DNA of 63,961 bases, filler included, from Collodictyon triciliatum (Eukaryota), in the NCBI GenBank assembly GCA_043381765.1. It is 3 parts of 3 records of this genome, joined end to end, with 100 filler letters (N's around TTAATTAATTAA, not from the genome) between each part and the next. Parts side by side here need not be neighbours in the genome. Positions count along the whole stretch, not along the records: positions 25,941 to 44,905 come from JBHJMP010001320.1; 2 more parts are not named here. One strand, 5' to 3'. Every line of letters starts with the position of its first letter. The first letter of the stretch is position 1. The translations under genes were made by a program, and so were the position numbers. This document shows positions 12,385 through 63,867 of this stretch, one piece after another. Below the pieces are notes generated by a model that made no database searches, was not told where the DNA came from, and worked only from the letters and a program-made list of their open reading frames with translations.

Positions 12385-14560
<2,176 letters not shown>

Positions 14561-24459: not shown

Positions 24460-24619
24460 GCGGGGACGGGGCCGGCAGGGAGGGGGCTTATTTGCAGCAG
24501 GACAGCCGCCGCCGCCCGCAAGACTCTGAGACGCTGGAATAAAAGGAAGGGGGCAGGAGGGGCCCGATTGCGTGTATGCGCATGTGTATGAGTGTGGGTG
24601 TAGGTGTGGGGCGAGGGGA

Positions 24620-25712
24620 TCAGCCGGCCCAGTGGAGGGTACGGTACGCGACGGTGTCGGTGTCGGGGGCGGGGATGGCGAAGACGGCAGCCTTTGCCAC
24701 GGCGACGGCGGTGCGTGCGTGCTGGACGAGGCGCAGGACATCGAGCGGGGCGTCGCACGGCACAACAACGACCACGAAGCGCGCGTGGCACACCCGCGGG
24801 TCGCCCGCGTAGACCAGGAAGTCGCCCCCGAACTTGAGGCCGCACGAGACGTGGAGGCCCCGCCGCCACAGGTCGAGGAAGACGCGGGTGCGGCCGGTGG
24901 GGGCGGCGCAGGGGGCGCAGGGCGTGGAGGGCGCGGGCGGGCGGAGGGGCGGCGGGCAGGCGAGGCGCGTGGGGATGTAGGGCAGCGGCGGGCGGGCGGC
25001 AGGTGCCGGCGGGGTGGGCGGCGGGTGGTGCCGGCGGGCGCGGTCCTGGGCGGCGCGGCGGTGTGCCTCTGCGGCGTGGCGGTGCGCAAGCGTGTCCCGG
25101 GCGGCGGCTGAGGCGGCGGCAAGGGCGGGGGTCGGCCGGGCGGGCGGGGCGCAGGGGCGGGGCTGCAGGAAGCCTGTGGCGGGCACAGCGGGTCAGAGGC
25201 GTGGTGTGGCGCGGTGTGGCGTGGCGTGGCGTGGCGTGGTCAGGTCAGGCCACAAGGGCAGGACAGCGCACCCACCTTCCCGCACCCCCGCGTGGATCTG
25301 CTCCGGCGTCAGCAGCAGCGGCAGGCTCAGGCTGGCAGTCTGGTTCGGGTGCAGCGGCATGGACCCCATCCACGGCGCAGCCAGGCGGTGGCGCCACACC
25401 AGGCTCAGCGCGTCTGTGGCGGGGGAGGGGCGCGTTAGTACGTCGGCCACACAGCCACAGCCACAGCCACAGCCACAGCCACAGCCACAGCCACTCACCT
25501 TGCGCGTCCATGACAAGGCCCGCCTCCCCGCTGACACACACGGCCACCGCTTCACCGTGCGTGCACAGGCGCACGTCGTCCCCGCTGTCCGCCCCGTCCG
25601 GAGGCGTGTCGTGTGCGCTGTCCTGCATCTGCGGCGCTTGTGCGGCGTCTCGCGCTCTGTCCGCCTCGGTGGGTGTGGCCTGCGCCCGCGGGTCGGTCTG
25701 TGTTGGAAACAT
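24620..25712 (-). CDS. TSEN34: tRNA-splicing endonuclease subunit Sen34, 3 exons
   Basis: LSLPLLLTPEQ and VFLDLWRRGLHVSCGLKFGGDFLVYAGDPRVCHA...VAK with catalytic Y/H/K. Intron 1 has a GTGAGT donor and a TACTAAC branch site. Start could be 25757. Confidence 0.9.
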
Positions 25713-25840
25713 AATCGGAGTGGCGGAATTTGAAGCAGCAATGAACAAGGACGACATAACAAATAGCCCAGCGGGAAAGAAAAAAGAAAAAGAAAAAGAA
25801 AAAGAAAAAAAGCAAAAGAAAAAAAGAAAAAAAGAAAAAA

Positions 25841-25940
25841 NNNNNNNNNNNNNNNNNNNNNNNNNNNNNNNNNNNNNNNNNNNNTTAATTAATTAANNNN
25901 NNNNNNNNNNNNNNNNNNNNNNNNNNNNNNNNNNNNNNNN
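25841..25940. other. Artificial contig linker N44-TTAATTAATTAA-N44
   Basis: Six-frame-stop spacer inside Ns; an identical 100-bp structure occurs at 44906-45005. Confidence 0.95.
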
Positions 25941-26032
25941 ACAAAAACAAAAACAAAAACAAAAACAAAAACAAAAACAAAAACAAAAACAAAAACAAAA
26001 ACAAAAACAAAAACAAAAACAAAAACAAAAAC
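25941..26032. repeat. (CAAAAA)n microsatellite
   Basis: Hexanucleotide run at the contig edge. Confidence 0.9.
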
Positions 26033-26141
26033 AAGATAATAAGAATTGATGAAAAAGAAATAAAAGACTGGCAACCCATCGAAGCAAAAGCAAGCCCCAA
26101 CCCACAGAACCCTCCTCCTCAACAGACCAACACCGCCAACG

Positions 26142-28091
26142 ATGAGCAAAAGCAGCACAACAGAAGCGGCACCAGATCCACAGAGCCACGTGCCAGGATA
26201 CGGCGGCTTCCTCCCCGAGTGGCAGCACACAATCGGGTCGTCCCTGCCGCGCCACAGCCGGGGACTCTACTCGCCGGATCGCCGCCCGGGGACGCAGCCG
26301 GCCACCCGCCACAGCCACAGCCACAGCCACACGCGCTTCCGCCTGCCAGCGGGGACCCAGGGCGCCACACAGCCGGGAGAGACACCGGAGGAGGCGGAGG
26401 CGGAGGCGGGGACGAGCCATCTGCCGGGGTACGCGGGGCACGTGCGGTCGCGGCCGGAGGCGGTGGGTGCGACGTTCGGGCGGATGACGCAGCAGCAGTG
26501 CCACCCGCAGGCGCAGGGCATGGCGACGTCCGCGCAGCAGACACACAACGCCGCCGCCCTGGGCGAGCCGGGGGCACACTTCCTTGCGGCCGCGGCACAG
26601 CGAACGTCCCAACCGGCGACGCAGCTGCTGACGCCCACGGAGCCGCCTCTGCCGCTGCCGTTGTCGTCCGGCCCCCAGCAGGCGACGTATGCGCGGGCGG
26701 CAGAGACCACGTCGGGGGCGGCGCATTCCAGGGCGGCGCTGGGCGAGTGGCACCGCGACACGCAGGCGACGTATGCGCGACACCCCGTGGGCGCGGCGCG
26801 GGCGGGCGGGACGATTGCGGACGCGCTGACATACGCGTCGCCAGGGGGTGATGATGGGGACGGGGCGGCTGCGACCGGGACACTGGCGCCCGCAGACCCT
26901 GCCGACGCGGCGTTCCGGCCACACCTGCGCCACACGCACGTGCCGGGGTACGGGGGCCACGTGGCGGGGACGCGGGACGTGCTGGGGCGGTCCTTCCCGG
27001 CGGCTGCGCACGGGCGCTTCCACGGGCCGTCGCTCGACACGACGCTGGCGCAGTTCCTCAGCGCAGACGCCCTGGGCGAGTACCACCGCGCCACAGACCC
27101 CGACCCCGCCGCCCGCGTGCGCTCGTGCATCCCGCCGCCCGCGTCGCCTCCGCCCTCCCGCCCGCACTCGCCCGCAAGTCTGGCCCGCCGCGTCAAGATG
27201 GGGTACGCCGGACACGTCCCCGGGTGGCGCGACGTCGTGCAGGAGCCCTTCGGCCGCTTCGCCCACCCGCACGCAGCCTTCGCCCCGGGCGACATCGCCA
27301 GCATGCAGAATCTCGGCCACTCCCTGCACGCCGTGCACCTCGACGCGGAGGACTCCCACACGCTGACGTACACGGAGCGCGACGCCGGATGCATCCCCAC
27401 CACCGCTGACGACGACAACACGGTCGCCGTCGCCCTCCCTCCGCAGCGCCTCGCCCCAGGCAAAGTCGCCCACGTGCAGCAGCATCCGGCCCACCACTAT
27501 CGCCCGGCCACCCCGCCAAACGGCACAGACGCAGACGCAGATGCAGACGCAGATGCAGATGCAGGCCACGTCCCTCATCCCCGCCGCACAGGCGTCCCCT
27601 TCCACGGCCACGCGCCCGTCCCGCTGTCCTTCCAGCAGACCCGCCGCACGCTCTCTGCATCGGCATCTGCATCGCCATCGCTTACGCACCGCACCAACCA
27701 TATCCCTGGATATGCTGGACACATCCCCGAGGTCCGCGAGGCGGTGGCCGAGACATTTGGCGTGGCGACAGAGGCCATTTATGTGGACGCCCTCACAAAC
27801 CCTGCGCATGCCCTCACGCACGGCACACGCACCACTGCTGGCGCCTACTTCTCCAAGGACGTACTCGGTGAGTATCTCCGCAGCACAAATCCCGGCAGCA
27901 CCTCCGTTGCTCAGATGAGAACGCGCACGATGATAGAGACTGGCGAGTCGCAGCCTGTGTCAAATTCCTCAGACATTCGGCATGCTCGCCCCCGAAATCA
28001 GTTTCAGGCTGCGGGTTCCATCCAGCGGAAGGATTCATCAGAGACCCTGTCCCGTGCTGCACTCTCGCCGCCACCTCCGTTTCCTGTCTGA
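26142..28091 (+). CDS. FAM166/CIMIP2-like ciliary microtubule inner protein with repeated PGYxG[HF]xP motifs, apparently single exon
   Basis: HVPGYGGFLP, HLPGYAGHV, HVPGYGGHVAG, KMGYAGHVPG and HIPGYAGHIP, several followed by TFG/SF, in a 649-aa ORF. Confidence 0.75.
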   Translation: MSKSSTTEAAPDPQSHVPGYGGFLPEWQHTIGSSLPRHSRGLYSPDRRPGTQPATRHSHSHSHTRFRLPAGTQGATQPGETPEEAEAEAGTSHLPGYAGHVRSRPEAVGATFGRMTQQQCHPQAQGMATSAQQTHNAAALGEPGAHFLAAAAQRTSQPATQLLTPTEPPLPLPLSSGPQQATYARAAETTSGAAHSRAALGEWHRDTQATYARHPVGAARAGGTIADALTYASPGGDDGDGAAATGTLAPADPADAAFRPHLRHTHVPGYGGHVAGTRDVLGRSFPAAAHGRFHGPSLDTTLAQFLSADALGEYHRATDPDPAARVRSCIPPPASPPPSRPHSPASLARRVKMGYAGHVPGWRDVVQEPFGRFAHPHAAFAPGDIASMQNLGHSLHAVHLDAEDSHTLTYTERDAGCIPTTADDDNTVAVALPPQRLAPGKVAHVQQHPAHHYRPATPPNGTDADADADADADAGHVPHPRRTGVPFHGHAPVPLSFQQTRRTLSASASASPSLTHRTNHIPGYAGHIPEVREAVAETFGVATEAIYVDALTNPAHALTHGTRTTAGAYFSKDVLGEYLRSTNPGSTSVAQMRTRTMIETGESQPVSNSSDIRHARPRNQFQAAGSIQRKDSSETLSRAALSPPPPFPV

Positions 28092-28839
28092 TGGGATACC
28101 CTTCTTTTCCTTTCTTTTTTCCTTTCCCCCTCCCTCCCGCTTTCATTAGCCAACTAGAGGGAAGGGAATCAAACATAGTGCAGGTAACAAGACGATTTTT
28201 TCTTGGGAATTATGACACGCACATCAAAGAGAACGTCCAACTGGTTTTGTGGTGGTTTGATTAAAAAAAAAAAAAAAAAAAGGAATGGAACGATAAATAG
28301 TTGATATGTCTACCCAGAAAAAAAGAAGTTGGAGTACCTCATTTTCTTCCCCAAATGAGTTGATTTTTGCCCCAGATAAAGCCAGTTATCACCACCATTG
28401 CTTTGTTTGCTCCCAATGTGCTCTTCTCTGTCCTGTCACAATGTACCATCCTCTTTTCCCAACCCTATTCCCCCCACTTCAGTTCACCTCTCCTTTACAA
28501 TCCTCCTCCTCTCTTCATTTGTCTTCACCTCCACAAAGAAACCAACGAATAAACAGAAGACAAACGAAAATCGAGAATATTTAAACGCACACAAGGGCAG
28601 ATGGTGCAGACTTATCGGCAATTTTATGGCATACATTGCGAGAGTCTGGTTCAAGCAAGTTTGTTTTGTTTTCTTTCTTTCTTTCTTTAAAGAAGGCCAA
28701 ACAACAAGTAGTAGAAGAATTAATGTCTGTCAATCACTGCTAATGTGAGATGCAACAGTTTTGGAAGAAGCTTTTCCCAGCACTGTCTCCCTTCTTGGGT
28801 TTGAACTCCTTTTCCTTTTCCTCCTTTTTCTTATTGTTG

Positions 28840-29700
28840 TTAAACGAGGGCCTTCCGAACAAGGGGAATTCCTTCCTGCATCAACGAGCGGGCCTCTCGG
28901 ACAGAGTCGTACTGGAACCGCATTGTGGCCCATCGGTCGTACGCCTCTTCACTGTGGGAGCGCATATATCGCTGGAACTCGTCGGCTGTTTGGCTTGAAA
29001 CACCTTCGCTTATCATGGTGGATGTGAGTTGTACAATACCGCCCTACATATAAACCCAAGAAAAAAAATCACTTGCGGTAAGCAATAGTATTTTTTTATT
29101 ACTGTTTTTCTTCCTTTTTGATTTCTTTCCATACATTTTTATGAAAATAAGAAACTAGATTAAAACATTAATATTACTCATCCTATTTCTTTTATAATAA
29201 TTATTATCACACGAGGGCTCATTAAATAGGATGTTTTACGCGATTTGCTTCAGACTCAAATCCTTGGGATTTCAATTGGGCTCTCATGACATAATCTTGC
29301 TCGTTCATCGCGCGAAGAAGACCCTTTAAAATAAAATAAAATCATAAAATACAACGGCATAATACCCACAATTTAGGGACAACAGTTATTATCTCATGCT
29401 TGCTGTATATAAAATCTCTGCCATTTGTCACATTAATATAATGTTAAATTTTGGAGTAGGAAATCACTTTGAATCGAATAAACGGGAAAAAATCGAAGAA
29501 GAAAATGTATTTCAATATCTTAATTATAATTCAGTAACTTCTTGACTTACATCCGTTTGAGTCACAAAGTAGTAAGGTGTGGCAATAGGGACGTATGTTT
29601 GGATTTTGATAGAATACTTTCCCAGGTAGTAAAGGGCATAAGCCACGGTTTGAAGGAGTATTGTAAGGACAAACTGAAGAGATGCTATGACATCAAACTA

Positions 29701-29799
<99 letters not shown>

Positions 29800-32056
29800 G
29801 AAAGAGAAAAGAGTAAAGACAATATATTATGCACAATAATTGAAAGTATCAGCTGACCAATCTAATTATGTAGCGTTATAAGCTTATAATATAATGAGGG
29901 GAATCAGAAAAAAAAATCAACAAAATAATTTATCATCTATATATCAGTTCAAACTGAATATCCGTCGTTTGAGGGGAAAATACAGTACGACTCGGTTGTT
30001 CCGCAGTTATAATTCGACATAAATTCTCCAGCCAAGTCAGCAAGGAGTACCGCAAGAGGTATAGGAAGCATGAGAATGAGAAAAAGGTAATGAACGTTGT
30101 TGATGATATTTGAAACAACAATTTCGATCTATGGTTAAAAGAAATCAATAAAAATACAGACATTCGGTCCATGACAAAAAAANNNNNNNNNNNNNNNNNN
30201 NNNNNNNNNNNNNNNNNNNNNNNNNNNNNNNNNNNNNNNNNNNNNNNNNNNNNNNNNNNNNNNNNNNNNNNNNNNNNNNNNNNNNNNNNNNNNNNNNNNN
30301 NNNNNNNNNNNNNNNNNNNNNNNNNNNNNNNNNNNNNNNNNNNNNNNNNNNNNNNNNNNNNNNNNNNNNNNNNNNNNNNNNNNNNNNNNNNNNNNNNNNN
30401 NNNNNNNNGGATAAATCAACTAGTGGATTGTAAAATAATCTTTGATTTCAAACCAGCTAAACAAACGAAAGCAGCATGGAAGGCAATCAGGATGACCATT
30501 GTCGCAAAGAAGGAAGCTGCGTAACACCCGATGGAGATTAGGACAGCGGGGTAGACTGGAAGGGAAAGAATACCTAAAGGAAGAGCGAGGACAGCATACG
30601 CAAAGTATGCGCATATCTTATCCATGTACCGTTCAAAGGTATACAATGTACTCCTGATCTCGTAAGTCCACTAAATATTTATGATGAAATAAACACTACA
30701 TTTAACATGAGAAATTATATTATATGCATATTAATAAGACAGTTAATGTGTTAAAGTAATTGGCATTTGAATTGATACTTATAGAACATATTTAAAAGAA
30801 CTTTGAATCGAATAAGGGAAAAAAAGAATATATTTACAAGAACTCTTTTCTCGGCCCGGTACTGAACAATGTTGAAGATGACAATTAAAAGATGAGGAAT
30901 CAAGCGAGAGGAGTACTGAACCGATAAAGTCAGCTTAAAGTCCTGTTTTAATTTTGATTGTAAATTTTCTCATACCAAAAGGTATGACTAGAGAACTAAA
31001 TTTACCAACGATACCCTTACTAACAATACTTTTAACAAGAAAAGTATATCTATCTTAAAAAAATAAAAGGAATAATAAAAAAGATAATCATGACAAACAT
31101 ACAAATAAACAAAAAAAAAAGATGAAGAAAGGACAAAAAAGTCAGAAAAATTATTATGATGAAAATTGGCCATTTATCTTTCAGTGAAGGTTACTCTTAC
31201 GTCTCTATCCCACATTGCTGGAAACCCCATACGAGTATCAAATACAAGTAGCAGAATCGCAAGTGTGGACAGAAATGAATTCATGTTAAGAATACAGTTG
31301 TTCAAAATCCTAATTGAAAATTACTTCAGATGATTCAATATCGAACACAATATATTTGCATCGATTGATATTAGCTAGATTCATCTTTGTCTACATCGAC
31401 TATGGTTACAAATCTCATAAAAAAGATGCCTACCTGTCAAACCGAACAAATCCGAAAACCTTACTGACGGTTCCCTTTCTCTCAAAGAATGGAAGATTGG
31501 TCATAAACTCATCTTTTGATTTTTCTAAGAGCATCTGTCTAAAAGTAAGGATTCAAGTTTATGACTGAATTAAGAGAACCAAACTTAATTTCAAAAAAAA
31601 AAAGTCACACAAATCGCTCTACTTATATTGAAATATAATTAATCAATAACTATAAAAGTGGTGGCATTAAAGTAATTCCTAGGAAGAATTACGATAAAGA
31701 ATAAGACAAACACTATGAGCAATCTATACTCAGTTACTAAATACGTACTGCTGGTATTGAGGCCAACCGAGACCGTCGATGACCACATAGACAGTCAAGA
31801 ACATAAAAAACAGCTGCGCAATTTCGGCATCTGCAAGACCCTACCACATGTAATATTGCTATTTACTTATCATAGATTACATAGTCTAAAGGGTTTGATG
31901 GTTAAAACATATGGAATCAAAATAATAATAACAAAGAACAAAAGAAACGGGCTTGGTTTTGAACCATACGATCTTGCCACAGCCTTTGTCCGCAAAGTCC
32001 TCGGAAAAAAAGTCGTACAGCGGGTTGTAGTCCTTATTATCCACACAGAGTGCCAT
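28840..32056 (-). CDS. Multi-exon multi-pass membrane protein of unknown function (an intron spans the N gap 30183-30408)
   Basis: Series of GT-AG exons from MALCVDNKDYNPLYDFF through hydrophobic segments (AYFAYAVLALPLGILSLPVYPAVLISIG; LFLILMLPIPLAVLL) to EGIPLVRKALV*. Some junctions are ambiguous. Confidence 0.65.
29466..29492 (+). mobile_element. Micro-retroinsertion, family A (intronic)
   Basis: actttgaatcgaataaacgggaaaaaa; any flanking duplication is only weakly discernible. Confidence 0.6.
29701..29797. repeat. (AAT)n microsatellite, intronic
   Basis: Perfect run. Confidence 0.95.
30801..30824 (+). mobile_element. Micro-retroinsertion, family A, with 18-bp TSD
   Basis: agaacatatttaaaagaa|ctttgaatcgaataagggaaaaaa|agaatatatttacaagaa (2 mismatches between the repeats). 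Confidence 0.8.
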
Positions 32057-32249
32057 ATTCCTAGTACAGCGGAGGTTACACAACTAGACCATGCGCACCA
32101 TAACTCTCTGCTGAGGGACTGAGTCAGGCGTGTAGTCAAGCGCAACACTTTCTGATTTGTGGGTTCGTTTTTCTTGGCAGGTTATTTTCCTTCAGTTTCT
32201 GCTTTATCATACCATTATAAGATAGAGTGTACTTGCTCAAATTATGGTA

Positions 32250-32942
32250 TGAGTGAGCCAATTTATGCTTTTCTGCAACCAAAAATTCTCAAAGCGCTGC
32301 ATCGTCAGTTCTGCGCAGAGTCGACCTCTCCAGAATGCACAATGTGCCATAGCGGAGACGACTCTATCGAACACACATTTGTGAAGTGCTCTCTTGCTCA
32401 AAAAGTCACATAATCCACCCACAAGATGCTCTCTGGGCTTGATTATGCTCCCAACCGACTCAGCGCGTCTGACATCCTATTTGGCCCACAATACCAAATG
32501 ACCCACGACTCTAGAATACTCTGGACAGTCACAAGGGGACATATACTGGTGGTTCTTATGGAGTATGTGCATTCTCTCTCTAATGATTTACCCGAACTAG
32601 AAACCTATGTATCCAGGCTTGAAAGCCTCGCGCAATACAGCTTCCTGAACAGCCTGCTGAAACATACCCGCATTCTTCGCTACTCTGACCGCAAGCGAAG
32701 AGAGATGTGTGAGTGTGTTGTAATATATTTCCCACAGCATATCCAACCCCTGTTACCCACGCAGCCAATCAACCAGTTGGGTCGCCCATCTGACCAACCC
32801 GCTACCACTGATTTCTTTCCAGTGCTAGCCTCTCCACGGTAGTGTCTTCTCTTACTCACGTTTGCTCTCTCCCATGCGCTCCCATCCCGCCCCTTTGTTT
32901 GGCATAACCTCGCTGCACTTTGAATCGAATAAAGCAAAAAAA
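32250..32942 (+). mobile_element. 5'-truncated, decayed non-LTR (L1/Tx1-like) retrotransposon 3' end, family A
   Basis: zf-RVT-like CTMCHSGDDSIEHTFVKC..AQKV, an in-frame TAA at 32411-32413, the same frame continuing to 32842, then a 3' UTR ending ctttgaatcgaataaagcaaaaaaa. Confidence 0.75.
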
Positions 32943-33490
32943 TCATGGGAAAAAATGCTGCAAATTTTACATAACGATTATGAAATTTATAGCTATATGT
33001 CATCATAAATTATTAATTGGATGCAAAGATGACTTGATTGATAAATTCTGTATATTTTATCCCTCTTGCTGCCTTGAATCATAGGATTGTATTGCCTGAG
33101 TATAATGTATTGTTCAATACCTCCTGCGGCCTTGAAAATTTCAAATAAAATACGTCACCTCAGATACATGACGCACACAAGTGACGCACAGACCTACCTG
33201 AGCCCATATAAATAATAAATTCCACACGAAAACAATTTCTCAGAAGTTTCATCGGCCTGTGCTATACTTAAAGTCTCTCCTGTCAAAGTTCAGACAGACA
33301 TCATGTGCCACTCCTCTGAATCTAAATTGTTGGTCGGTCAATGAGGTAGTCAGCCTCTGCGCACATAGCCGCACTGTTCTTTCGGACACCGCGCTCTTCT
33401 ATCAGTGTTACATATAAAATACCATTTTTAAAAGAGATAAAACATATGTCTATATGTACTATACAGGACGCAACTACAACGCACGATTCT

Positions 33491-33526
33491 TTTTTTTTTT
33501 TTTATTCTTCCTTTCAACTTTTGTGC
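33491..33526 (-). mobile_element. Micro-retroinsertion, family B, with perfect 15-bp TSD
   Basis: acaacgcacgattct at 33476-33490 and 33527-33541 flanks the reverse complement of gcacaaaagttgaaaggaagaat(A)13. Confidence 0.82.
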
Positions 33527-33593
33527 ACAACGCACGATTCTATTAATTCAGCCCCAGGACTCGAACAAACCGTCTCTGCTCACCTTTGTCACG

Positions 33594-35657
33594 ATGGCGG
33601 ATGAGCCTACGGAAATGGAATTGCTGCGAAGAATTCCAGGGATTCCTGACATAGCCACACTGAAGTGCTCCACAGAGCTGGACTTTCGTTGGAAAAACTT
33701 AACATATGTTCCTCAAGAACTGTTTGTGTCGGATCGTTTACAATTCTTAGACTTATCTTGTAATTGGATTATTTCTTTACCTCCAGAAATATCGTGCTTG
33801 ATTAGTCTCAAGATACTAAGACTAAGTGAAAATCGGCTGATATCACTCCCACCGGAGATATCATGCTTAATTGGTCTCAGCATACTTGATGCTTATGGAA
33901 ATAGACTGGCATCAATCCCACCAGAAATATCGAGTATGACCGATCTCAAAGCTCTCAATTTTGGTGGCAATAGACTACTGTCAGTGCCGCTAGAAATAAG
34001 ATTATTGACTGGGGTCACCAATCTTTGTGTTGGCGAAAATAAGCTGACTTCGCTACCGCCAGAAATATCGTGTTTGGTCAGCCTTGAAAAGCTCGATATA
34101 AGCGGAAATGAAATTTCTTCTCTACCAGCAGAAATTACATGTTTAACTGACCTCTATGTCCTCTGGATTTGTCGTAATAAGATGTCATTTTTACCACCAG
34201 AAATACCACGCTTAACTAGACTTGGATCTTTGTCCATATCTGGCAATCCGGTATGATTGATTTTTTTTTATTTTGTAATGCATGAAAAAAAAAAGAACGA
34301 GGCTAATATCGATACATGCAGATGGAAGAGCTTCCAGTGCAAATCACCGCACTCACAAATCTGAGCTGTATCCATATCGAGGACTCTGGAAAAGTAAATA
34401 TCAAAAGAGTGCCGCGTGGGTTTACAAATCTTCCGTGCTGGAAAAACTTAAGACAACAGAGCTATCATCATTTTCGTGCTCTGCAGATCTACGATTCTGT
34501 AAGCGAGAGAACCACGTACAACAGCGCCCACCACCCGCAACCTTACATTCCCAATATTAACAAACACCTCTCCCATACAGGTTCCGATAAGTCCAAATTG
34601 TGAGCCCGTGACAGGTGACTATGCTGACGTGATGAGTGTCGACTTAGCTGCTCACCCAGTCATCGGTGAAGGTGGCGTCGGCACAGTGCACATGGTGCGG
34701 CTGCATAAGGGGACTGTGGCTGTCAAGGTGCTGAAGATGAAAGCACAGCCGGGTACAATCGAATACAGCGAGCTAACACGGGAGTTTAAGTTGATGGTGA
34801 AACTGCGCCATGCAAATGTCCTCAGCCTCTTCGCATACGGCTGCAAGGACCAGGCAGTCTTCTACATCATGGAGTATGCCAACGGCAGGAGCATTTGGGA
34901 CATTCTCATGGCCTCCGGTACGGCGCTTTCATTCACCAAGTGCATTCAATATGCCATCCAAATCAATGCAGGTTTGAAGTACCTTCACACTCGCACTCCA
35001 CCCGTTGAGCACCGTGACTTGAAGCCCGAGAATATTCTGCTATGCCATGACGTGGCCAAAATATGCGACTTTGGCATCTCCTCTGCCCGTGAAGCCGTCT
35101 ACTGCGCAACTGGATTCCAAGGATTACTTCACTACATCGCGCCAGAATACTTTGACACAGAGAAGCACCACAGTATCATGAGCGACGTGTACTCATTTGG
35201 CCTTGTCATCTGGACAATGCTCTCTGGGCAGCGGCCGTACGAAGGGCTTACCACAGACCAGATTTCCACACAGAAAGTTCAGCAAAAGCTCCCTATAATC
35301 CCACCCATGACTCCCAAAAAGATGGCCGCCCTGCTGAGCCAGTGCTGGGCCCTCGAGCCCCGAAACCGCCCGTCTGCAGCTGACTTGGAGTCGAGGCTTA
35401 TTGGAGTAAAAGCAAGCCCAGGGCCTGCTATTATTGAGGTGATATTGGTAAAGGAAATGGCAACTACTGAGCTGGTTGCCTATCTGAGGGGTAAGAACGT
35501 GGTGCCTGGCTTTGTGTCTGCAATCAGCGAACACAAGGTAAATGGTGAGAATTTTCTGGAGATGGATGAGATTACCATTATGTCTGCTCCCTTTTCTCTA
35601 CCAAAATTCCAGGCAAGAGGCATTCTGCTGCTTATCGAAGAGGCAAAGCGCGCTTGA
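33594..35657 (+). CDS. LRR - TKL kinase - SAM domain protein, 3 exons
   Basis: LPPEIxxLxxLxxLxLxxN repeats, introns at ~34251-34321 and ~34499-34580, kinase motifs IGEGGVG/VAVK/HRDLKPEN/DFG/YIAPE, and a C-terminal SAM-like ELVAYLRG...ISEHKVNGENFLEM. Confidence 0.9.
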
Positions 35658-35829
35658 CATGTGTGGGCCTGCAGATTTCGCTTCAAGTATAGTTCAAAAT
35701 TCTGATTTTTCTGCCTTAGCTCTCAACCAATAATGAAACATATACTCTTATTTTCTTTTTAAGAAACACCAAATCCAATGAAATAAAGAAAATATAAAAT
35801 ATATGGATGATATGAAAACAAATATTTTC

Positions 35830-35965
35830 GCAGGATGCAATTCCTGATTACCAACTACTTCTCCGCCACCCGGCCACCAAGTAACGTCGATGCAAACGAT
35901 GGCTAGCGAACCAAAGCCAATATCTCCACCATCCTGCACAAAATTGAAAGGAAGAATAAAAAAAA
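35830..35965 (+). mobile_element. 5'-truncated retroelement, family B (~135 bp), with imperfect TSD
   Basis: Ends gcacaaaattgaaaggaagaat(A)8, like 33491-33526. Flanked by tatgaaaacaaatattttc and tagggaaaactaatatttc. Encodes RRMQFLITNYFS...DG*. Confidence 0.7.
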
Positions 35966-37027
35966 TAGGGAAAACTAATATTTCTATGAAAATTTTTCTT
36001 CTTATGGTATTATTTGGTAGGGTCAGAAAAAGGAAAATTATAACCAGAGCCGTTCTTAACACTTCAACGGGATAGATTCCCACTGATATCGAATACCTCG
36101 ATACATATATATTAAAACACCCTATTCTTTCTATTGCTATGGGTCAACACGATAGAAGTTTGGACACACCTTTGTACTAACTGAGAGTATGTGGATTGCA
36201 TAAGTGTCACACTTGAAGACAATAAAACGAAGCGAAGAAAATGAAATAAAGCAAGAAAAAGTAAAGGAAAACTTAGTAAAATGTGGATTTATATATCATA
36301 TTTTTTTAATCAATAGATCAAAACATAAAATTTTGGTTAATCGCACAGAAACCAGCGGCCATCAATCACTTCCAATATCGTTACTCTCGAATCTATCCAG
36401 ACACTCCTCAACAATCCCTGCGGAAACCATCTAAAAGAATGTTCCAGAAATTAGACTGTAAGAAGGACGGTCTACCCAACCTTTCGTTCTCAAAAAGGCT
36501 CTGTTTGAGTATAATGTGAGCAGCTACAAGGCTCAGAAATGAGGAAAAACTCTTCAAGCACTGTTCATGGGAACATCCCAAGTTGTGAAAGTAATCTTTC
36601 TCACCTGCCAAAAAAACTCCAAAAAATGAAGAAAAGAAAAAGAAGCTCAGGTGAGATTAAAACATACACAAATCAACTTAAAAATAAAGACGATCTATCT
36701 TTATATTTTGGAGCATCTTGTTTAAGACATCTACAAGGAGTTTCACTTGGAGCAGAATCTACCACTTCCTCTCCACAGACGGTTCAAATGCGTACTATTA
36801 AGAGAGTGACAATATTTCATTCTGAGCTTTCCAATCACAATTCCATTCTGTTTTGTATAGATTAAGCTAGTGACTATGAATGGTGAGGAAGACATAAAGA
36901 CTGGAGGGCGAAGAACAACTCCAAGTCGATAGAACACAAATGAACCAATTTGAGAGCTGGCTTAATGCAACTTGTGACGGGTTAATTGATTTTTATTGAC
37001 CTGTCAAAAAAAAACTCTCTTTATACT

Positions 37028-37179
37028 CATATCAAACCCTTGTTGCGCACACATCTGACCAAATTCTTTTTCCTTTATTTGATTCTAGGGATGCCCGCCT
37101 GACCAACTTGCTATCACTGATTTCTTTCCAGTGGAGGCGTGCTTCAACAGCTCAGTCTGTTGTTAATTAAAAAAAAAAA
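37028..37179 (+). mobile_element. Diverged 3' fragment related to family A
   Basis: catatcaaacccttgttg and gggatgcccgcctgaccaacttgctatcactgatttctttccagtg align with 32738-32824; the ORF ends TAA, then TT and an A11 run. Confidence 0.7.
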
Positions 37180-37855
37180 TCTTCTCGGTGGCAACTTTGC
37201 ATCAACATCATTTTTCACACCGTTGTATTACTTCTGCACCTTGTATGAATTAACTATCGGTACATCTAATTAGCTAAGATGAAAAAACTTCTGTCCTGTA
37301 CCCTGCAGCATCGACAGACAAACTGATGAAGCCAAAGCCAGTTACCTCATCTCCGCACCCTTGCAAACCCCAAAAATCTGCTGACAGTCCCAATTGGGTA
37401 TTTCCACATATACACCAACGGTTTCTCATGCCTTTTTGCTCCCAACGAGACAAAACCAGTTCTCGTTCTCAACGCCATTCATTTAGTCATCCACTGGTCG
37501 TTCTTTTCTCGATTACTGATGGCGCGACGGCTTGTATAAACAACAAACCTTGTTCAAAGCCCAACCGTGAAGATGGCGAGGCTGCAGACAAGGGCGCACT
37601 CCTTTTACACCGATTATAACCGCAGCCTCCATGACTGGGTGACAAAGCCTCATGCTTCCCTGTTTGTGTCCTTGTGAATTACTTTCTCTGCATGAGACAA
37701 GCTTGCCATCGCGCAGCCTCGCAAGAAGATTGATCAATCACAATAGACGCAAAACAGGGTTAAATTATCTTTGCTCAACAAAGCACTCAATCGACTCATC
37801 CCAGCACACAAGGGTCGCCTGCAGAGACTCTGAAAGAGAAAGGAAAAAGAAAATA

Positions 37856-39781
37856 ATGAACTATGTCCTCGGGTACTCAGACGTGAAAGGCTTGGAAGTC
37901 GGTGTGCCAAAAGACTGGAGTCAACCCCCAAAGTTCCGCGTCCTCCGCACTAAAGGCGAGCTTGAGAAGCTGGGCTTCTGTGCCTATGCAACAGGTACGC
38001 ACGATATCGTACGAAATCAAAAATAAAAATAAAACCAGAAAAAAAAACTACATTATCCCGCAAATGAAACATGCATTCATAAATCCACCTGATAATATTA
38101 TACCGGAAGGCATTCCCACAACTCTACTTTCGCTTTAGTGGCCCTACTTAGCAATATATCACTGACAGATCGATAAAACTCCCACTTTTTTATATCTAGT
38201 ATGGTTTAGCCTCTGGACTGTTTTTTCCCTCTCATTAGTTACATTAGACTAAATCCTTTTTCCTTTCAATTGGCCCGCTCAAAACTTTATCAACCAAGAG
38301 CCTGCTGATGAAGAGAGAATCCACCGGAAACGAATAGGCATTCCGCAATTAAAAAGTACTGCCGTCGAGCACGGAGAAGGGAAACGGCATATCATAAGCG
38401 AAAACACAAAATACTCGTATGGGCAATATGTTCTCATTTACGAGTACGAATCCATTTATAATAGCAAGAATCAATATATGATTAGGATTCATAATGTGCA
38501 TTAGGTGTGGGATGGATTGGAATTCTCGGAGGCGATACCTATCTCCCTTACGACCACTCCAAGAACCAGAAAAGAGCACCATTAAAGTCTTTCCAGAGAT
38601 GTCAGGTCCTTCTGATTTTCCTTCTCTTGTTTCCTTCAAAAGTTACTCATTATTCATTTTCAAATGTACGATTATCATCATCCATCGTAGCCATACAAAA
38701 AGAATTCAAAATTCATTCAAAAAAGATATCTGGAATGATTAGGATACGAGTCATTGAGAATTTCAGATGATTCGAATCTTCACAGTCACCCGGAAAGAAG
38801 GCACCATAACCCAGAGTCCAAATCCTTATACTCTATTAAGGCAAAACCTGACCCAACCTTCGAACAGAATATGGGCCGAAAATCTAGAGGTTAGGCGAAT
38901 CCTACGAAGAAGAAAGAAAGAAAAAATACACCAACATTTCATGTTCCAAGAAAGCTTACTATTTTTTTTAAAAACATACAAACAAACAAATATTTTCATA
39001 GTGAACGAATCCGATATGAGAAATGGCTTTGAAGTTCACTCTCCTGGAGATAAACCATATATTACATCAGAAGAATCAGCAGGATTTTATAACGATAGCA
39101 CCACGCCATCAATTATTTGGAGGCAAACATTTTAGTTTCAAAACAAACACCCAATCCTATTCTTTGAGAATATATAACAAAAAAATTGATATGTCATCAC
39201 ATCATTGTCAATATACGATATGATGAAGAGCATGTGATGATATTGGTAACATACCTGATTTTAAACCGAATATATACCATAGTTACATCTCATACTTTTT
39301 TACATAGACTCCAAGGCCAACAGTTTCTTGCAAACAAAAGTTCTGCGCGAAAAGGAGCAGACGTGTATGCAGTTTTTTTTATTTTTAATTTATTTCTTTC
39401 TTTATTTCTTTATCGTTTAGCGAATCTAATTGAAGCAACAATAAAATCGAGCATATATTAAAACTGCATATACATGTACCTTTTAAAGACATGGAACATG
39501 AGGTATTCAAACACGATAATCGTCGCCGGTTTAGGGACAACCTTGGAGGACTTACAAGGATTGACCGTGAGATGCAGCGTATAGACATCCAGGATGTTTG
39601 TGGGTTGGAAGAGTGGACACAAAAGAGGCTCTTATCTCTGCCAAAGGCATCCACAGAGGCATCTTCAAATGCCGTTCCTTTGGTTTTACTGGCCAATCCA
39701 AAGAAAGAAACCGGGCTGAGAAACCAACCACAAGCATCCTCTACTTTACCGAAGCTCAACCAAGCAAAATCCAGCAAATAG
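37856..39781 (+). CDS. SPATS1 (SASRP1 family)-like centrosomal/ciliary protein, multi-exon
   Basis: RNGFEVHSPGDKPYITSEESAGFYN and IDIQDVCGLEEW resemble the SASRP1 motifs RNG...PGD.PY..E.S.GF and EI.EV..LD.W (recalled, not searched). Confidence 0.65.
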
Positions 39782-39891
39782 TTCCTGGTCTGTGAGCTGA
39801 CAGCAATATTTTTCTTTCATAAACAGTTACAATAAAGAAGCCATTTATCGAATTTTGAAGAATAACTTGTGTTTTCATACCTCTTTTCGTT

Positions 39892-40505
39892 CTATTCATT
39901 TGGTACCCAGATGTGGGTAATGGAATTAAGAATGGCATGCGTCTTTATTTATTCATGTCTGGAAGATATGTTTTCGTGAACTCATCGTTTTGAGGAAACA
40001 AAATCAAAAGAAAAGGAGAGCCGTGCAACAAATGGATATTCCGCGAGAGAACAGGAAGAACTTCCTTCATAACTTCCATTTGAGGAGTGTCGTCAGCGAT
40101 AGTCAATCCGGGTATGACGCAGTGCGGTATGCGGCATTGGGCCTTTGCATGCACTAGCAGCTTGATTGTATCGTTTGTTGGAACATGCTCGAGGACGGTC
40201 GAAACGGCATACAAAGGCTTTGGAAGCCACGACAGCTGTTGATGTATAAAGTTGTAGAGTGCAATATTGATTGGAAAAATTGATTTTTTTTTGAACGAAT
40301 GAAACCCAGACAGCCATTATATTCGGCTTCGGGTGGATGCTAGTCTTTCTCTTTTCATCTATGTGCACATATTGGGTAGCTATAAATGTATTACCTTGTC
40401 CAAGAGATGGAGGAGATTGCAGGTGATTCCGTAGACCGGCCGCTGCACAACAGGACAAGATAGGTCACGAGACCACGCGTCGATAACAAACGAAAAAATA
40501 GACAT
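39892..40505 (-). CDS. Small hypothetical protein (~110 aa, 3 exons)
   Basis: MSIFSFVIDAWSRDLSCP...LLDK|LSWLPKPLYAVSTVLEHVPTND...MKE|THAILNSITHIWVPNE* with in-frame GT-AG junctions; the last exon is uncertain. Confidence 0.5.
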
Positions 40506-40760
40506 AAGCGGCTCCCACAGCCGATTCAGACTCGTCCGTTCTATCGAGTTTGAAATAGTAATCAATTTTTTGTTCTTTATTAGATTGGCCTAAAACCTCA
40601 ATATGCCCGATTCTTTTATTAAATCTAAATTTCGATATTCTTCAACATGTGTCACAGCTTATCTCTCAAACTAACCAAAATAAATAAGTAATTGCAATAT
40701 TTTGAGTACTTGGACATAGCACTTTCGTTGAGTGGGTTTATGGGCTACGATGATAAGCTT

Positions 40761-43682
<2,922 letters not shown>

Positions 43683-43813
43683 AGTTCACACCCACCCACA
43701 CACAACCGCGGAGGAAAAAAAGGGGGGTCCTGTATGGTTTGTTTAGATGAACGATCATGCTAACCGTAAAAATCGTGGCTTCCGTGGTTTGGCAACGAAG
43801 ATTTTGCCCCGTA

Positions 43814-44018
43814 GAAAGAAAGAAAAAGAAAAAAGAAAAAAGAAAAAAGAAAAAAGAAAAAAGAAAAAAGAAAAAAGAAAGAAAAAAGAAAGAAAAAAAG
43901 AAAGAAAAAAGAAAAAAAGAAAAAAGAAAAAAAGAAAAAAGAAAAAAAGAAAAAAGAAAAAGAAAAAGAAAAAGAAAAAGAAAAAGAAAAAGAAAAAAGA
44001 AGAAAGAGAAAAAGAAAA
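43814..44018. repeat. A/G-rich (AAAAAG)-type tract
   Basis: Low-complexity purine run; source of the poly-K/F ORFs. Confidence 0.9.
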
Positions 44019-44337
44019 GGATACGCTCAGACAATTAGTCTTTTCATTTTCTGTTAAGCGATTCAAAAGAAAAAAGCCTCAGTTGCTTCAAAGTTGGATA
44101 CTGCTCACTTGTAGCGACAAGAGAGCAAAACAGAAAGGAAATAGTCATAGCCGTATGTTCATCTTTTCCTCAGCTTTTAATTGGCACCGCGCACGACACA
44201 GCGAGATTCTGCGGCTGGGAAAGAGGGAAAGAGGGAAAGAGGGAAAGAGGGAAAGAGGGAAAGAGGGAAAGAAAAAAAAGAAAAAAAAGAAAAAAAAAAG
44301 AAAGGAAGAGTGCTTCACGAGTGTTGTTGCAGAAGCC

Positions 44338-44734
44338 TCAGTTCTTGTAAGGCTTTGTCGCCCACGCAGCATAGTTGACTGACAAGTCGAGCGGGTCGAA
44401 TGTGAAGGAGCTGGTGAGTGGATTGTAGTGGATTCCCAAGAGGCCCTGTTTGCGAGGACAGATATTAGTGTTGCTGATCTCGCCCTGCGCAAAACACCCT
44501 TTCTGTGGATGCTGCCCGAGACCAGGAAAGCAACGTAGCAATAGAAGGAAAGAAGAAAAAAGAAAAAAATATAAATAAGAACATCCAAACATCAGCAGGA
44601 TATATGCATCATGGAGGGTATCAAAGCTGGATACTGCAAGTATGAAAGGAGGGAAACCTTTAATTGGAGACCGTTCTGGTCGAGAAGATAATGCAGCTCC
44701 TCAGGGCGAATGAATCTTCTCCAGTCGTGAGAGT
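44338..44734 (-). CDS. COQ3: Ubiquinone biosynthesis O-methyltransferase, last two exons (5' part lost at the contig end)
   Basis: SHDWRRFIRPEEL...LK|GLLGIHYNPLTSSFTFDPLDLSVNYAAWATK matches the COQ3/UbiG C-terminus. Confidence 0.85.
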
Positions 44735-44799
44735 CTATTGTATGATTAAGTTACTATCAATTTTGAGTATGACTATTGGCCTTTATTTTCGTTTCTTTG

Positions 44800-44905
44800 A
44801 AGACAAAAGACAAAAGACAAAAGACAAAAGACAAAAGACAAAAGACAAAAGACAAAAGACAAAAGACAAAAGACAAAAGACAAAAGACAAAAGACAAAAG
44901 ACAAA
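44800..44905. repeat. (AAGACAA)n 7-mer tandem repeat
   Basis: Intronic in COQ3; runs into the gap. Confidence 0.92.
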
Positions 44906-45005
44906 NNNNNNNNNNNNNNNNNNNNNNNNNNNNNNNNNNNNNNNNNNNNTTAATTAATTAANNNNNNNNNNNNNNNNNNNNNNNNNNNNNNNNNNNNNNN
45001 NNNNN
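44906..45005. other. Artificial contig linker N-TTAATTAATTAA-N
   Basis: Same spacer as 25841-25940. Confidence 0.95.
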
Positions 45006-46100: not shown

Positions 46101-49100
46101 TGAATTGGTATAACTCATATGCGCAATAGGCCAAAAGGAACATATCTCTGTTGAAATTTGAACTCGTCATCATGAAAGAGCAGATGGAGAATTTGAGAAA
46201 AATACAAAATAACTTGATCAACAAAGCCATCAGGGTAATATCTTGAATACACCAACGCAAACTGCTTGACTTAACTCTCTTAATGATTTTATAATGTCAT
46301 GATATGTGAGTCATAGTAGCAAAAAACCAATAAGTATATATTTTTTAAACCCTATATATTCGAAAGTAGGAGCTAAAGAAAAGAGAAAGAAAATGTCAAG
46401 TCAACAAACAAGCCTACACAGAAGAGCTAGGGAGACGTACCCCGAGGCCTGATTGGCAGAGCATATTCCCAGAGTACATGAATTTGCATATAAATCTGCT
46501 GCACTGTACACTTTCTGAAAAATTAAGGGAATTTCAAACTATTTTTTTCGAAAGTTAAAAAATACAAGGAAATAATCAGAATATTGTAAAATAATCCAAA
46601 TAAAATAGATAAACAATCCTATAATCTAAAATGACAACAGAATAAATAAACAAATTAAAAATTACAGGAGTATAACGTTGGCTTATTTTTTATCATCCAT
46701 TCATTTTCATCTACTCATTTAATATTTAAACCATGCAATCATACGGACAACTATTTAATTCTAATTTATTGTCATCATGGCTCCCTTTAGTTACGATACT
46801 GTCGTAGAATTTAAGTCTATTGACCTTACAACAGAAGGATCCACCGTTGGGAAGGTTATTTGTTTGATACCTTTGCAAAGGGCATATAATGAATAATATT
46901 TCTTCTCATCGGTGTAAATATGCAATGATCTTCTGAAAGTATTCAATTATGAAATATTTCATACTTTAAGGTTTTGCTGCTAAAGGAGGAACTTATCAGA
47001 GTTAATGAAGAACTCGAACAGTACAAGGTTAATATTAATTAATTAAAATTCAAAAAGAAAAGCAACCATAATCCGTTAAATAAAATCATCATTACCAAAT
47101 AAATGATAGTCAATATCCACCGTACATCTGGAGAAGGAAAAAGAGGTAGTCGAAACACCGACCGGTGATAAGTTCTTTACGGGGCTTGGGGTTGGACCAG
47201 AAGTACCAAAATACCTTCGAATAAGTGGGAAAGTGAGTTTCTAATAATTTTTGAATCAAATGCAATACTACAAATTTAATCATATGTTCCTTTTTTTTTT
47301 TTTTTAGTAGTTTTTTTCTTTATAGATACCATGTAAATAAAAGAAATCCCACACATTAGTGATCCAAATACACACATGACCCTATTGTTGATGATATTTT
47401 ACACATGGACATACATTCAGAAAAATCTCATCATCTATATCAAATATGCAGATAAAGAATAGAAAGTTGGCAAAGAGAGATACCGAAATGATAATTAAGG
47501 ATGTTTGGAGGGAGCGCTCACAAACTCTGAAAGGCGGCGGGACCAAAGTATCTACATATTCTCAAGAAATAACAAAATACATACATTTTCTACTCTGTAT
47601 AAATCACACTTCGCCCCATTACCACACATACACCTTGCTATCTCTCATCACTAATATGTTTTCACTTTGAATACCCTTAATAACAAGCAGAAAATTCGCC
47701 TACAAGATTTTCTATACCAATATCTCCAAAATCATTATGGATTACATAACGTCATTGTAGAATGGGCATACAATCTCATAGATGCACTGGAAAGGTTTTT
47801 TCGGTTATTCTTTTATTTATAAATACCAAGATATAATAACTAATTATTTTTTTTTTTTTTAAAAAAAAGTGATGATATTCACTTACAGAATGCCAATTCC
47901 AAATTAGGTTCAAATACGATGGTGACTGTGAGCTATTTCTTCGCACGCTTCAAGGAGAGCTATCTGATGATGTTTGCCCTATATATTCAATAAATGGTCA
48001 TTATCATGCAATTAAAGTATTGAAATGGAAAAAAAAACGGATTATTTTTATGGTCTATGGCAGGCTCACGACGACCAGATGACCATGGTGGAAAATTTGA
48101 GACAAATATACATAAAGTATTATCTCATAATAATTATGTCCACTAGTGTATTTGTAATTTATATTTCGATTTCGTTTATAGTTCAGAATGCCCCTTTCTT
48201 TTTCTTCTGAGGAGAAAAAGAAACTAATTTGCAATATAATCAGGCAAGATGTTACTGCAAACGGCAAGGAGACTGGAAAGCTATCCAGAAAGGATGTTTT
48301 ATCACTGCTTGGGAAGTGTGCCTTTCTTTCAAATTTCAATACACTCAAGTTTGCATATGTCAAAACACAAAGGCGAATATGCTTCCATTTTGAAGATTTA
48401 TTTATTGTTTCTATAAGTCCAAAACACCGATAAATATTTACTAAATATATTCATTCTGAACAATATGGAATTACAAATAAGCAACTTTGAACTGAAACAC
48501 AATTTACAATTCGCATGCCGTAGGTATTTCACATTAAAGACGCCGGAGCGATTGAATCTTATACGTGGGGTTAGTGTATTGTACATTCCGATAAAATGAC
48601 ACTGATAATTCTGGCAAATGGATGCGTGCTTTTGGAGAATAATTCATCTTATGACACATATTGTCTGCTTACAGTCCCTTCTCCACGACCAACCAGGAGC
48701 CACTATTCTGTATCAAAAGGTGACGGTCATGCAAACTCGATGCATTTTTTTTTCGATCTCTTCTTTTTTCTTATTTTTTTCGCCACTATAAATCAACATA
48801 TGCGATGATAGTGAGGCATGAATGAATGTAACATGCACTGTGTAGCTTTTTGAGGAGGATAGAGATGGAAATCAAGGGATGTTTGTCGAGACTATTCGAA
48901 GCCAGCATCTAGAGGAGATTTTGGAGTTCAATGATAGTATAGAGGTTAATATGCATTCTTTGACTCTCTTAATAGTTACCATACACAAAATCTTTATCAG
49001 ATAGTTCAATTCATAGGAGTCGAAGATATGAAAAAAAAATTCCGTCGTGATCTAAATTATTTTATTTATCCACATAAAATAAGGCTGGGCTTTCCAAACT

Positions 49101-52516: not shown

Positions 52517-52795
52517 GTCTGGTTCGTGGGCGTTGCGTCTGCGTGGGATCGGGTCTGGGCGAGTGTCAAACTTTGTCAGCGCAACGCAGTGCGAGTGAGT
52601 CTTCCCAGCGTGACGCTCGTCTCTCGGCTTCTCTGATAATCGCTTGCTTCTTCTCTGATGCTTTGATGCAAGGAAACAACGCTTTTTCCTGCACCCATTT
52701 AAGGCTGGTCGCAATCGTCCAAAAAAGGAATCTAAAGTCAGTTGTAACGAATATTGTATTTTATAATACATATTATCGGGTCGAAAGTTAAGAAA

Positions 52796-52868
52796 GCCCG
52801 TCTAGCTCAGTCGGTAGAGCGTGAGGCTCTTAACCTCACGGTTGTGGGTTCGAGCCCCACGGTGGGCG
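52796..52868 (+). tRNA. tRNA-Lys(CTT), intronless
   Basis: GCCCGTC-TA-GCTCAGTCGGTAGAGC-G-TGAGG-CTCTTAA-CCTCA-CGGTT-GTGGG-TTCGAGC-CCCAC-GGTGGGC-G folds as a full cloverleaf with A/B boxes; a T-run follows. Confidence 0.97.
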
Positions 52869-63657: not shown

Positions 63658-63867
63658 GCGTACTTGTTCTTTCTTTCTCTTTCTCTCTCTTTTCCTCCCT
63701 TTTGTTTCTAGACCTTTTGGTTTTCTGGGTGCAGGGACGGAACTATCATTAGTCTTCCTGGCAAGCCCACGATCCCTTCGGTTTGGTGGTGGTAGAGGTC
63801 ATTTGAGGTGGTGTGTCCAGCCAGAAAAGAAAGGAAAAAGAAGGGAAAAAAAGGAAAAGGAAAAGGG

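Follow-up and report, generated by a model that had tools for sequence, protein, structure and literature searches.

Does the protein of a retroelement end in a docking motif for the sliding clamp PCNA, and if so, what is it for? This question is raised by a 63,961-nucleotide stretch of Collodictyon triciliatum DNA (assembly GCA_043381765.1; three parts joined end to end, with positions 25,941 to 44,905 from JBHJMP010001320.1), referred to here in its entirety as the window. On its plus strand, three open reading frames (ORFs) close with variants of the PCNA-interacting protein (PIP) box: QPATTDFF in copy A1 (32795..32818; 7 codons before TAG at 32840–32842), QFLITNYF in copy B (35838..35861; 14 codons before TAG at 35904–35906, with R at +4) and QLAITDFF in copy A2 (37104..37127; 12 codons before TAA at 37164–37166). 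A first-pass annotation of this DNA had described the three peptides as lying in frame, 7–14 codons from a stop, at the ends of retroelement remnants, and all three were found so. The reading that we favour, and hold to be probable, is that the three sites are dead, heavily 5′-truncated 3′ ends of poly(A)-type non-long terminal repeat (non-LTR) retrotransposons with an L1-like ORF2 C-terminus, and that the motif is best explained as a PCNA tether on the tail of the ORF2 protein (ORF2p). The copies in the window are themselves relics without present function.

Tail motifs and chance expectation

The motif of A2 is a canonical PIP box of the TD type. B also fits the consensus Q-x-x-[I/L/M]-x-x-[F/Y]-[F/Y], as given in PMC5371812, while A1 lies outside it on account of a T at position 4. 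Because the loose form of this pattern (Q..[ILM]..[FY][FY]) is as frequent as chance predicts, it is uninformative alone: 11 occurrences were counted in the six frames of the window versus 9.9 expected, and 5 within 15 codons of a stop versus 5.1 expected (means of 200 local second-order Markov simulations that kept the local trinucleotide statistics). The narrow form Q..IT[DN][FY]F occurs three times (35838, 37104 and 47827) versus 0.005 expected per window, and none of the 200 simulations reached three. This pattern was defined after the hits had been seen, and a tail profile built only from sequences outside the window, described below, is the better test.

The third narrow match, QDIITNYF (47827..47850, plus strand), is followed by a T-run, a TAA and an 8-A run in low-complexity, AT-rich DNA. 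It was rejected as a relative by the outside tail profile (E value 11) and could be either chance or another very short relic. Its occurrence indicates that narrow matches can arise in AT-rich DNA. Together with the chance-level count of the loose pattern, it lends some support to the view that selection had no part in the motif, an accident of one family, and that B matches merely by chance, being AT-rich intergenic DNA and no retroelement. Against that view stands the expectation of 0.005 for the narrow pattern, and the outside relatives and the structure of B bear on it further.

Copies A1 and A2

Copy A1 (32303..32932, plus strand) appears to be the decayed, 5′-truncated 3′ end of an L1-like long interspersed nuclear element (LINE), as indicated by tblastn, profile hidden Markov models (HMMs) and a match to the Pfam family zf-RVT. 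Of the zf-RVT zinc knuckle it retains the end; a C-terminal domain of about 140 codons, the tail and a 3′ untranslated region (UTR) of about 90 nt follow, the last with AATAAA at 32918–32923 and a 7-nt A-run at 32926–32932. Outside relatives covered positions 32303/32315–32839 by tblastn (E value down to 2.9e-56), which sets the 5′ edge at 32303–32315, and a whole-length HMM matched A1 at E values of 1.5e-25 and 5.5e-11. The frame is interrupted by an in-frame TAA at 32411–32413, and a flanking direct repeat was looked for at A1 and not found.

Copy A2 (37019..37179, plus strand), recognised by its alignment to A1 and by the tail HMM (E value 1.7e-7), is a 3′-end fragment of the A1 family, about 150 bp long and closing in an 11-A run (37169–37179). 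A1 32779–32824 and A2 37088–37133 share 85 % identity over 46 nt, and the homology can be followed upstream as far as about 37026, across 22 nt inserted in A2. Since a 2-nt indel relative to A1 follows FFPV, the A2 stop 12 codons after the motif is not the native end. An A-rich 12/13 repeat flanking A2 (37006–37018 and 37170–37182) is ambiguous, as it overlaps the A-run. The open frames around the A2 and B motifs span only 25 and 31 codons, respectively, with stops just upstream. Judged from their alignment, A1 and A2 are 5′-truncated, decayed copies of one element.

Conservation of the tail in outside relatives

A phmmer search with the 142-codon A1 ORF against 1.84 billion cluster representatives returned 6 matches and a profile search of a 5.8-billion set returned 12, giving 13 distinct proteins in total, all of them fragments (45–345 aa) on contigs of at most 1.8 kb. 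The tail region is reached by eight of the 13, and six of these eight carry Q-x-x-I-T-[DN]-F-F and fit the PIP consensus: QTAITDFF in P0005 and P0010, QTVITDFF in P0009, QLAITDFF in P0007 and P0014, and QSVITNFF in P0008. P0012 and P0006 fall outside the consensus. The predicted protein end lies 7 or 9 residues past the motif in five of the six canonical tails, with the end of P0007 coinciding with the A1 stop. As to whether intact copies keep the motif in frame, a point on which the first-pass annotation had staked its case, the longer outside copies hold it in frame with a zf-RVT ORF, 7–9 residues from the end. These relatives also explain the odd peptide of A1, which had been called a degenerate copy: P0007 and P0014, its nearest relatives (76–84 % identity), read QLAITDFF at this place, so QPATTDFF reflects decay in a dead copy.

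P0009, P0008 and P0007 are 34–45 % identical overall. Five of the eight motif columns are identical in all three proteins versus 1 of 19 flank columns upstream and 0 of 7 downstream. On sequence evidence, a conserved motif between diverged flanks is characteristic of a short linear motif under protein-level selection, and its persistence across lineages this far apart argues against an unselected accident.

An HMM of 37 columns was then built from the six outside tails, without window sequences, and run on the 2,840 window ORFs of at least 12 codons. Its top three hits were A1 (E value 2.1e-17), A2 and B (0.0021); the next hit had an E value of 0.13. A minus-strand stretch at 19934–20187 was considered as a fourth copy (tail HMM E value 0.13–0.3) and rejected, being an intron plus an out-of-frame exon of a kinase gene. 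The ESM Atlas returned zf-RVT clusters only, from Streptophyta, Oomycota and Mucoromycota, and scores of at most 0.80 once zf-RVT was excluded; neither search added anything.

Copy B

Copy B is a 142-bp insert (35828..35969, plus strand) delimited by the tail HMM, a flanking repeat and its GC contrast. It begins three codons before the motif Q, encodes RRMQFLITNYFSATRPPSNVDANDG up to the TAG at 35904–35906, and continues with about 50 nt of 3′ UTR, an A8 run (35958–35965) and a terminal TAGG. The candidate target-site duplications on its left (GAAAACAAATATTT, 35814..35827, plus strand) and right (GAAAACTAATATTT, 35970..35983, plus strand) match at 13 of 14 positions, lie 156 nt apart and bracket exactly the 142 bp of the insert. 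Its GC content is 46 % versus 25 % and 31 % in the flanks. The tail HMM gave B 15.2 bits, the third-best score of all ORFs searched, with QFLITNYFSATRPPSN aligned to iQtaITDFFaVlrpppn, and the match extends beyond the motif over RPPSN. Compared with P0008 by BLASTP, B showed 10/22 identities (E value 1e-4, for a single comparison). We regard B as the probable stub of a related element, flanked by a target-site duplication. A reading of B as a host exon was rejected: joining a GTAAAT donor at 35539 to the CAG at 35831–35833 gives another frame (DAIPDYQ...).

It is at B that the accident view has most to draw on. Neither tblastn nor the whole-length HMM detected homology of B upstream of the motif, and a pair as good as its 13/14 repeat turned up somewhere in 5 % of simulated 401-nt regions, before any constraint on position. 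Against it, the match continues past the motif, the repeat boundaries are exact, the insert ends in an A-run and its GC content exceeds that of the flanks by 15–21 points. We consider the accident view rather improbable.

The first-pass annotation had noted that A and B lack obvious nucleotide similarity, and this holds, as B and A2 agree in no more than 13 of the motif's 24 bases. Its further suggestion, that two separate families both keep the motif, which would imply convergence, is not supported by the alignment: B shares residues with the outside tails after the motif (RPPSN), which suggests that the A and B tails derive from a common ancestor.

Peptide or nucleic-acid signal

Where B and A2 have I, T and the final F in common, their codons differ (ATT/ATC, ACC/ACT and TTC/TTT, respectively), which suggests that the peptide is conserved and not the nucleotides. 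This bears on the possibility that the conserved stretch is a 3′-end signal at the nucleic-acid level, namely an RNA hairpin for the element's own reverse transcriptase, with the peptide as a by-product. The codons of TDFFPV in A1 (32805–32824) and A2 (37114–37133), on the plus strand, do contain CACUG-9 nt-CAGUG, which forms a hairpin of 5–6 bp in minimum-energy folds, within 100 nt of the element's 3′ end. This is the region in which stringent LINEs carry their recognition structures. However, the fold z-scores are weak (−1.98 in A1, −0.72 in A2 and −1.62), B retains the peptide motif in other codons and lacks the hairpin, and the ‘FFSI’ of P0008 cannot encode CAGUG at this place. Across the stem, A1 and A2 do not differ, and covariation is therefore uninformative either way. 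A hairpin as the conserved feature seems very unlikely to us.

Retroelement identity

In the frame of the A1 tail ORF, an ORF at 32156–32413 aligns with the final 28 positions of zf-RVT, a Pfam family described as ‘zinc-binding in reverse transcriptase’ (E value 3.5e-5, 24.8 bits, below the 27.5 cut-off), and zf-RVT scored above the Pfam cut-off in 7/7 longer relatives scanned. At the knuckle, A1 reads CTMCHSGDDSIEHTFVKC, which corresponds to CX2CX8HX4C, a spacing also present in 8 of the 13 relatives and described as the cysteine motif of non-mammalian L1 (PMC5381506). All three copies bear marks of target-primed insertion in the form of A-runs (11 nt in A2, 8 nt in B and 7 nt in A1), and the 5′ parts are gone in all three. 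The identification of these pieces as retroelement 3′ ends is thus borne out by zf-RVT, CX2CX8HX4C, the A-runs of A2 and B and the 13/14 repeat of B. Of the domains that characterise pogo/Tigger transposases, DDE_1 and helix-turn-helix (HTH), no Pfam match was found in the relatives, nor among 151 window ORFs (11 + 140 of the 261 window ORFs of at least 75 aa).

A predicted PCNA tether

We propose that the working ORF2p would end in a short, probably disordered tail bearing a high-affinity PIP box of the p21/pogo/Cdt1 type, 7–9 residues before the C-terminus. The Gln would enter the Q-pocket of PCNA, and the Ile and the two aromatic residues would plug its hydrophobic pocket as a one-turn helix. 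Such a tail would tether ORF2p to PCNA at the target-primed reverse-transcription intermediate or at the replication fork, and so would take the role played in human L1 ORF2p by internal contacts. An AlphaFold2 model of P0009, poor overall (mean predicted local distance difference test score, pLDDT, of 49; 8-row alignment), contains a core of moderate confidence from the zinc knuckle onwards (residues 172–318, block pLDDT 56–85) and a tail (319–345) with pLDDT below 50, in which the sole helix, 328–335, falls over the motif at 329–336. This helix fits a PIP box but proves nothing.

Several results weigh against the proposal as a whole. No reverse transcriptase (RT) domain (RVT_1) was found in the 151 window ORFs or in the relatives, and profile searches for longer relatives (444–2000 aa and 605–2000 aa) returned none, although the latter is weak evidence. 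An endonuclease (EN) domain was likewise absent from these ORFs and from the relatives, as expected for 3′ fragments. Hence, of the first-pass claim that the pieces belong to an RT-encoding LINE ORF, the domain family stands, whereas RT and EN in the same ORF can only be presumed: with neither domain found and relatives of at most 345 aa, the link runs through zf-RVT and is not direct. For B, BLASTP against P0005 gave no match, the whole-length HMM reached only an E value of 3.4, and tblastn of P0008 against the window found B at 0.69. Two of the eight outside tails depart from the motif: P0012 reads QNFPSQYF, in which the Q and the aromatic pair are kept and the hydrophobic position is lost, and in P0006 the motif breaks off after ‘IQT’, a frameshift being the probable cause. 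The ends of the relatives are themselves predicted, with the true stop supported only via A1's own stop, and only a few paralogous lineages are sampled, since several relatives (those 76–84 % identical to A1) may share the same or a sister genome. The basic flanks of strong PCNA binders, as described in PMC8191301, are mostly absent from these tails. Finally, a PDB sequence search gave no ORF2p match (best E value 0.35), and Foldseek of the P0009 model against the PDB gave 0 matches at an E value of at most 0.001. Human L1 ORF2p chains appeared in the Foldseek results at ranks 8 (E value 0.27, probability 0.80) and 20 (both E values about 0.3) and are not counted, because they lie above this threshold.

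Comparison with known clamp-binding motifs

Among PIP boxes compiled in Table 1 of PMC4615156 are p21 (QTSMTDFY), the engineered consensus p21-08 (QTSITDFF) and the pogo-ligase (PL) peptide QKKITDYF. The tails of P0005, P0009 and P0010 are one residue off p21-08, and the tail motif has ITD[FY]F in common with the pogo-derived PL peptide. According to PMC3973308, few PCNA partners have TD, which confers high affinity and occurs mostly in CRL4-Cdt2 substrates. Flanks also matter greatly, and native peptides are reported to bind much more weakly than the same boxes set in p21 flanks (PMC8191301).

The CRL4-Cdt2 connection raises an alternative, in which the tail is a real short linear motif with another purpose, either a PIP degron through which CRL4-Cdt2 would destroy ORF2p on chromatin-bound PCNA or a site for another partner. 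The degron signature is given in PMC3973308 as Q/N-x-x-psi-T-D-theta-theta-x-x-x-R/K, and P0009 (QTVITDFFAVPR) and P0010 (QTAITDFFAVIR) match it in full; at +4, B (with TN) has R and P0005 has H. TD is present in five of the six canonical outside tails as well as in A1 and A2, and the scarcity of TD outside CRL4-Cdt2 substrates adds weight to this alternative. However, R/K occupies +4 in only two of the six canonical outside tails, the A-type tails having P or T there, A2 having A and P0008 having P. With R at +4 confined to P0009, P0010 and B, the last of these with TN, the lineage as a whole does not share the degron feature of TD plus R/K at +4. The degron core Q-x-x-psi-T-D-theta-theta is otherwise that of p21, Cdt1 and Set8, which are host cell-cycle regulators with basic flanks, whereas most tails here lack both the +4 base and basic flanks. 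We regard a purpose other than tethering as unlikely; moreover, because a degron needs prior PCNA binding, it would refine the proposed tether rather than replace it.

A close parallel is human and vertebrate L1, likewise a non-LTR element whose ORF2 protein has a PCNA-binding element (here a predicted one), and CX2CX8HX4C is common to the non-mammalian L1s. The L1 PIP box is reported to be needed for retrotransposition and to occur in all vertebrate L1 (PMC5371812, PMC10830420, PMC5381506). In PMC10830420, the canonical L1 box is placed at residues 404–419 between EN and RT, in a helix packed on the palm and fingers, and R2 is described as being without one. The position between EN and RT, which the first-pass annotation had named, is thus in print; a 2025 study (PMC7617806) has since moved the working contact to a non-canonical ‘PUB’ surface in the wrist domain, with pull-down and mutational support. 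Unlike in L1, the box described here follows the zinc knuckle and occupies the very C-terminal end, in a tail modelled with low confidence, and is of the TD type.

In its position, the motif is reminiscent of the DNA transposases pogo, Tigger and Lemi1, transposable-element proteins with a PIP box near the C-terminal end (PMC5371812, PMC4231638). The pogo transposase is presented in PMC5371812 as the first clamp-binding transposon protein, its motif being conserved in Tigger and Lemi1, and human L1 ORF2p as the retrotransposon case. Its motif is located at the C-terminal end (PMC4231638), reads QKKITDYF (PMC8191301, Table 1) and shares I-T-D-aromatic-F with the tails; its function is described as unclear (PMC5371812). 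Whereas pogo is a DDE cut-and-paste element, the proteins here carry zf-RVT without DDE or HTH, and the copies end in A-runs. A likeness also exists to bacterial Tn7 TnsE and insertion sequence families, mobile elements that dock on the beta sliding clamp via motifs of the Q-x-x-L-x-F type (PMC5371812); these differ in domain of life, in clamp and in using DNA transposition instead of reverse transcription. As the first-pass annotation had surmised, a terminal PIP box is not known from described LINEs as far as our literature search reached, which is weak evidence, as most subscription journals and Repbase lay outside its coverage. The arrangement is a combination of two known themes, the L1–PCNA contact and the terminal PIP box of pogo, and not a new category.

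Genomic context

The window is eukaryotic-looking, with spliced genes and a GC content of about 40 %. A leucine-rich repeat (LRR) protein kinase gene of the host (33594..35657, plus strand; Pfam LRR_4/LRR_8 and Pkinase, E value 2.9e-47), with an intron visible near 34250–34321, is not part of the elements. All three LINE stubs flank this gene in its own orientation. Protein-kinase genes are plentiful in the window, being found at 60313–63798 (minus strand), 33594–35657 (plus), 19302–20800 (minus) and 12815–14417 (minus), and include a 1161-codon intronless kinase with Sel1 repeats.

A GC island at 24500–28000 reaches 62–76 % in 500-nt windows, with a dip to 40 % at 25500–25999. It contains an ORF with a tRNA-intron endonuclease domain (24623–25192, minus strand) and one with a CMI2B-like ciliary motif (26064–28088, plus strand), and N runs at 25841–25884 and 25897–25940. 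Further N runs (gaps) are found at 30183–30408, 44906–45005 and 6866, and some of the long ‘inverted repeats’ returned by repeat detection are N runs. A PIP-like QLTLDSFF (52721–52744, minus strand) is found close to the beginning of an open frame of 202 codons without a Pfam match, adjoining a tRNA-Lys(CTT) gene (52796–52868, plus strand); given the chance rate of the loose pattern, it is probably meaningless.

Implications

PCNA has been counted among the very few host factors that aid L1 by direct contact (PMC5478143), and its site and role on ORF2p are now under revision (PMC7617806). A terminal box placed after the zinc knuckle would, like the wrist ‘PUB’ contact, position PCNA C-terminally to the polymerase. 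A bolder extension, to which we give little credence, is that some sublineages carry a full PIP degron, with which ORF2p would win PCNA from competing host factors, at forks or on the nicked target, reach 3′ ends and then be destroyed on the clamp by CRL4-Cdt2, as a single-use switch, PCNA on the C-terminal side being a general and reinvented requirement of target-primed reverse transcription. As for the tether itself, if it is real, these tails would provide an independent line of evidence, from evolution, that target-primed insertion repeatedly depends on recruiting the clamp, and their eight separable residues would offer a clean handle on PCNA dependence that leaves the polymerase fold undisturbed. 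Terminal clamp motifs would accordingly be worth seeking in the ORF2 C-termini of LINEs of all clades.

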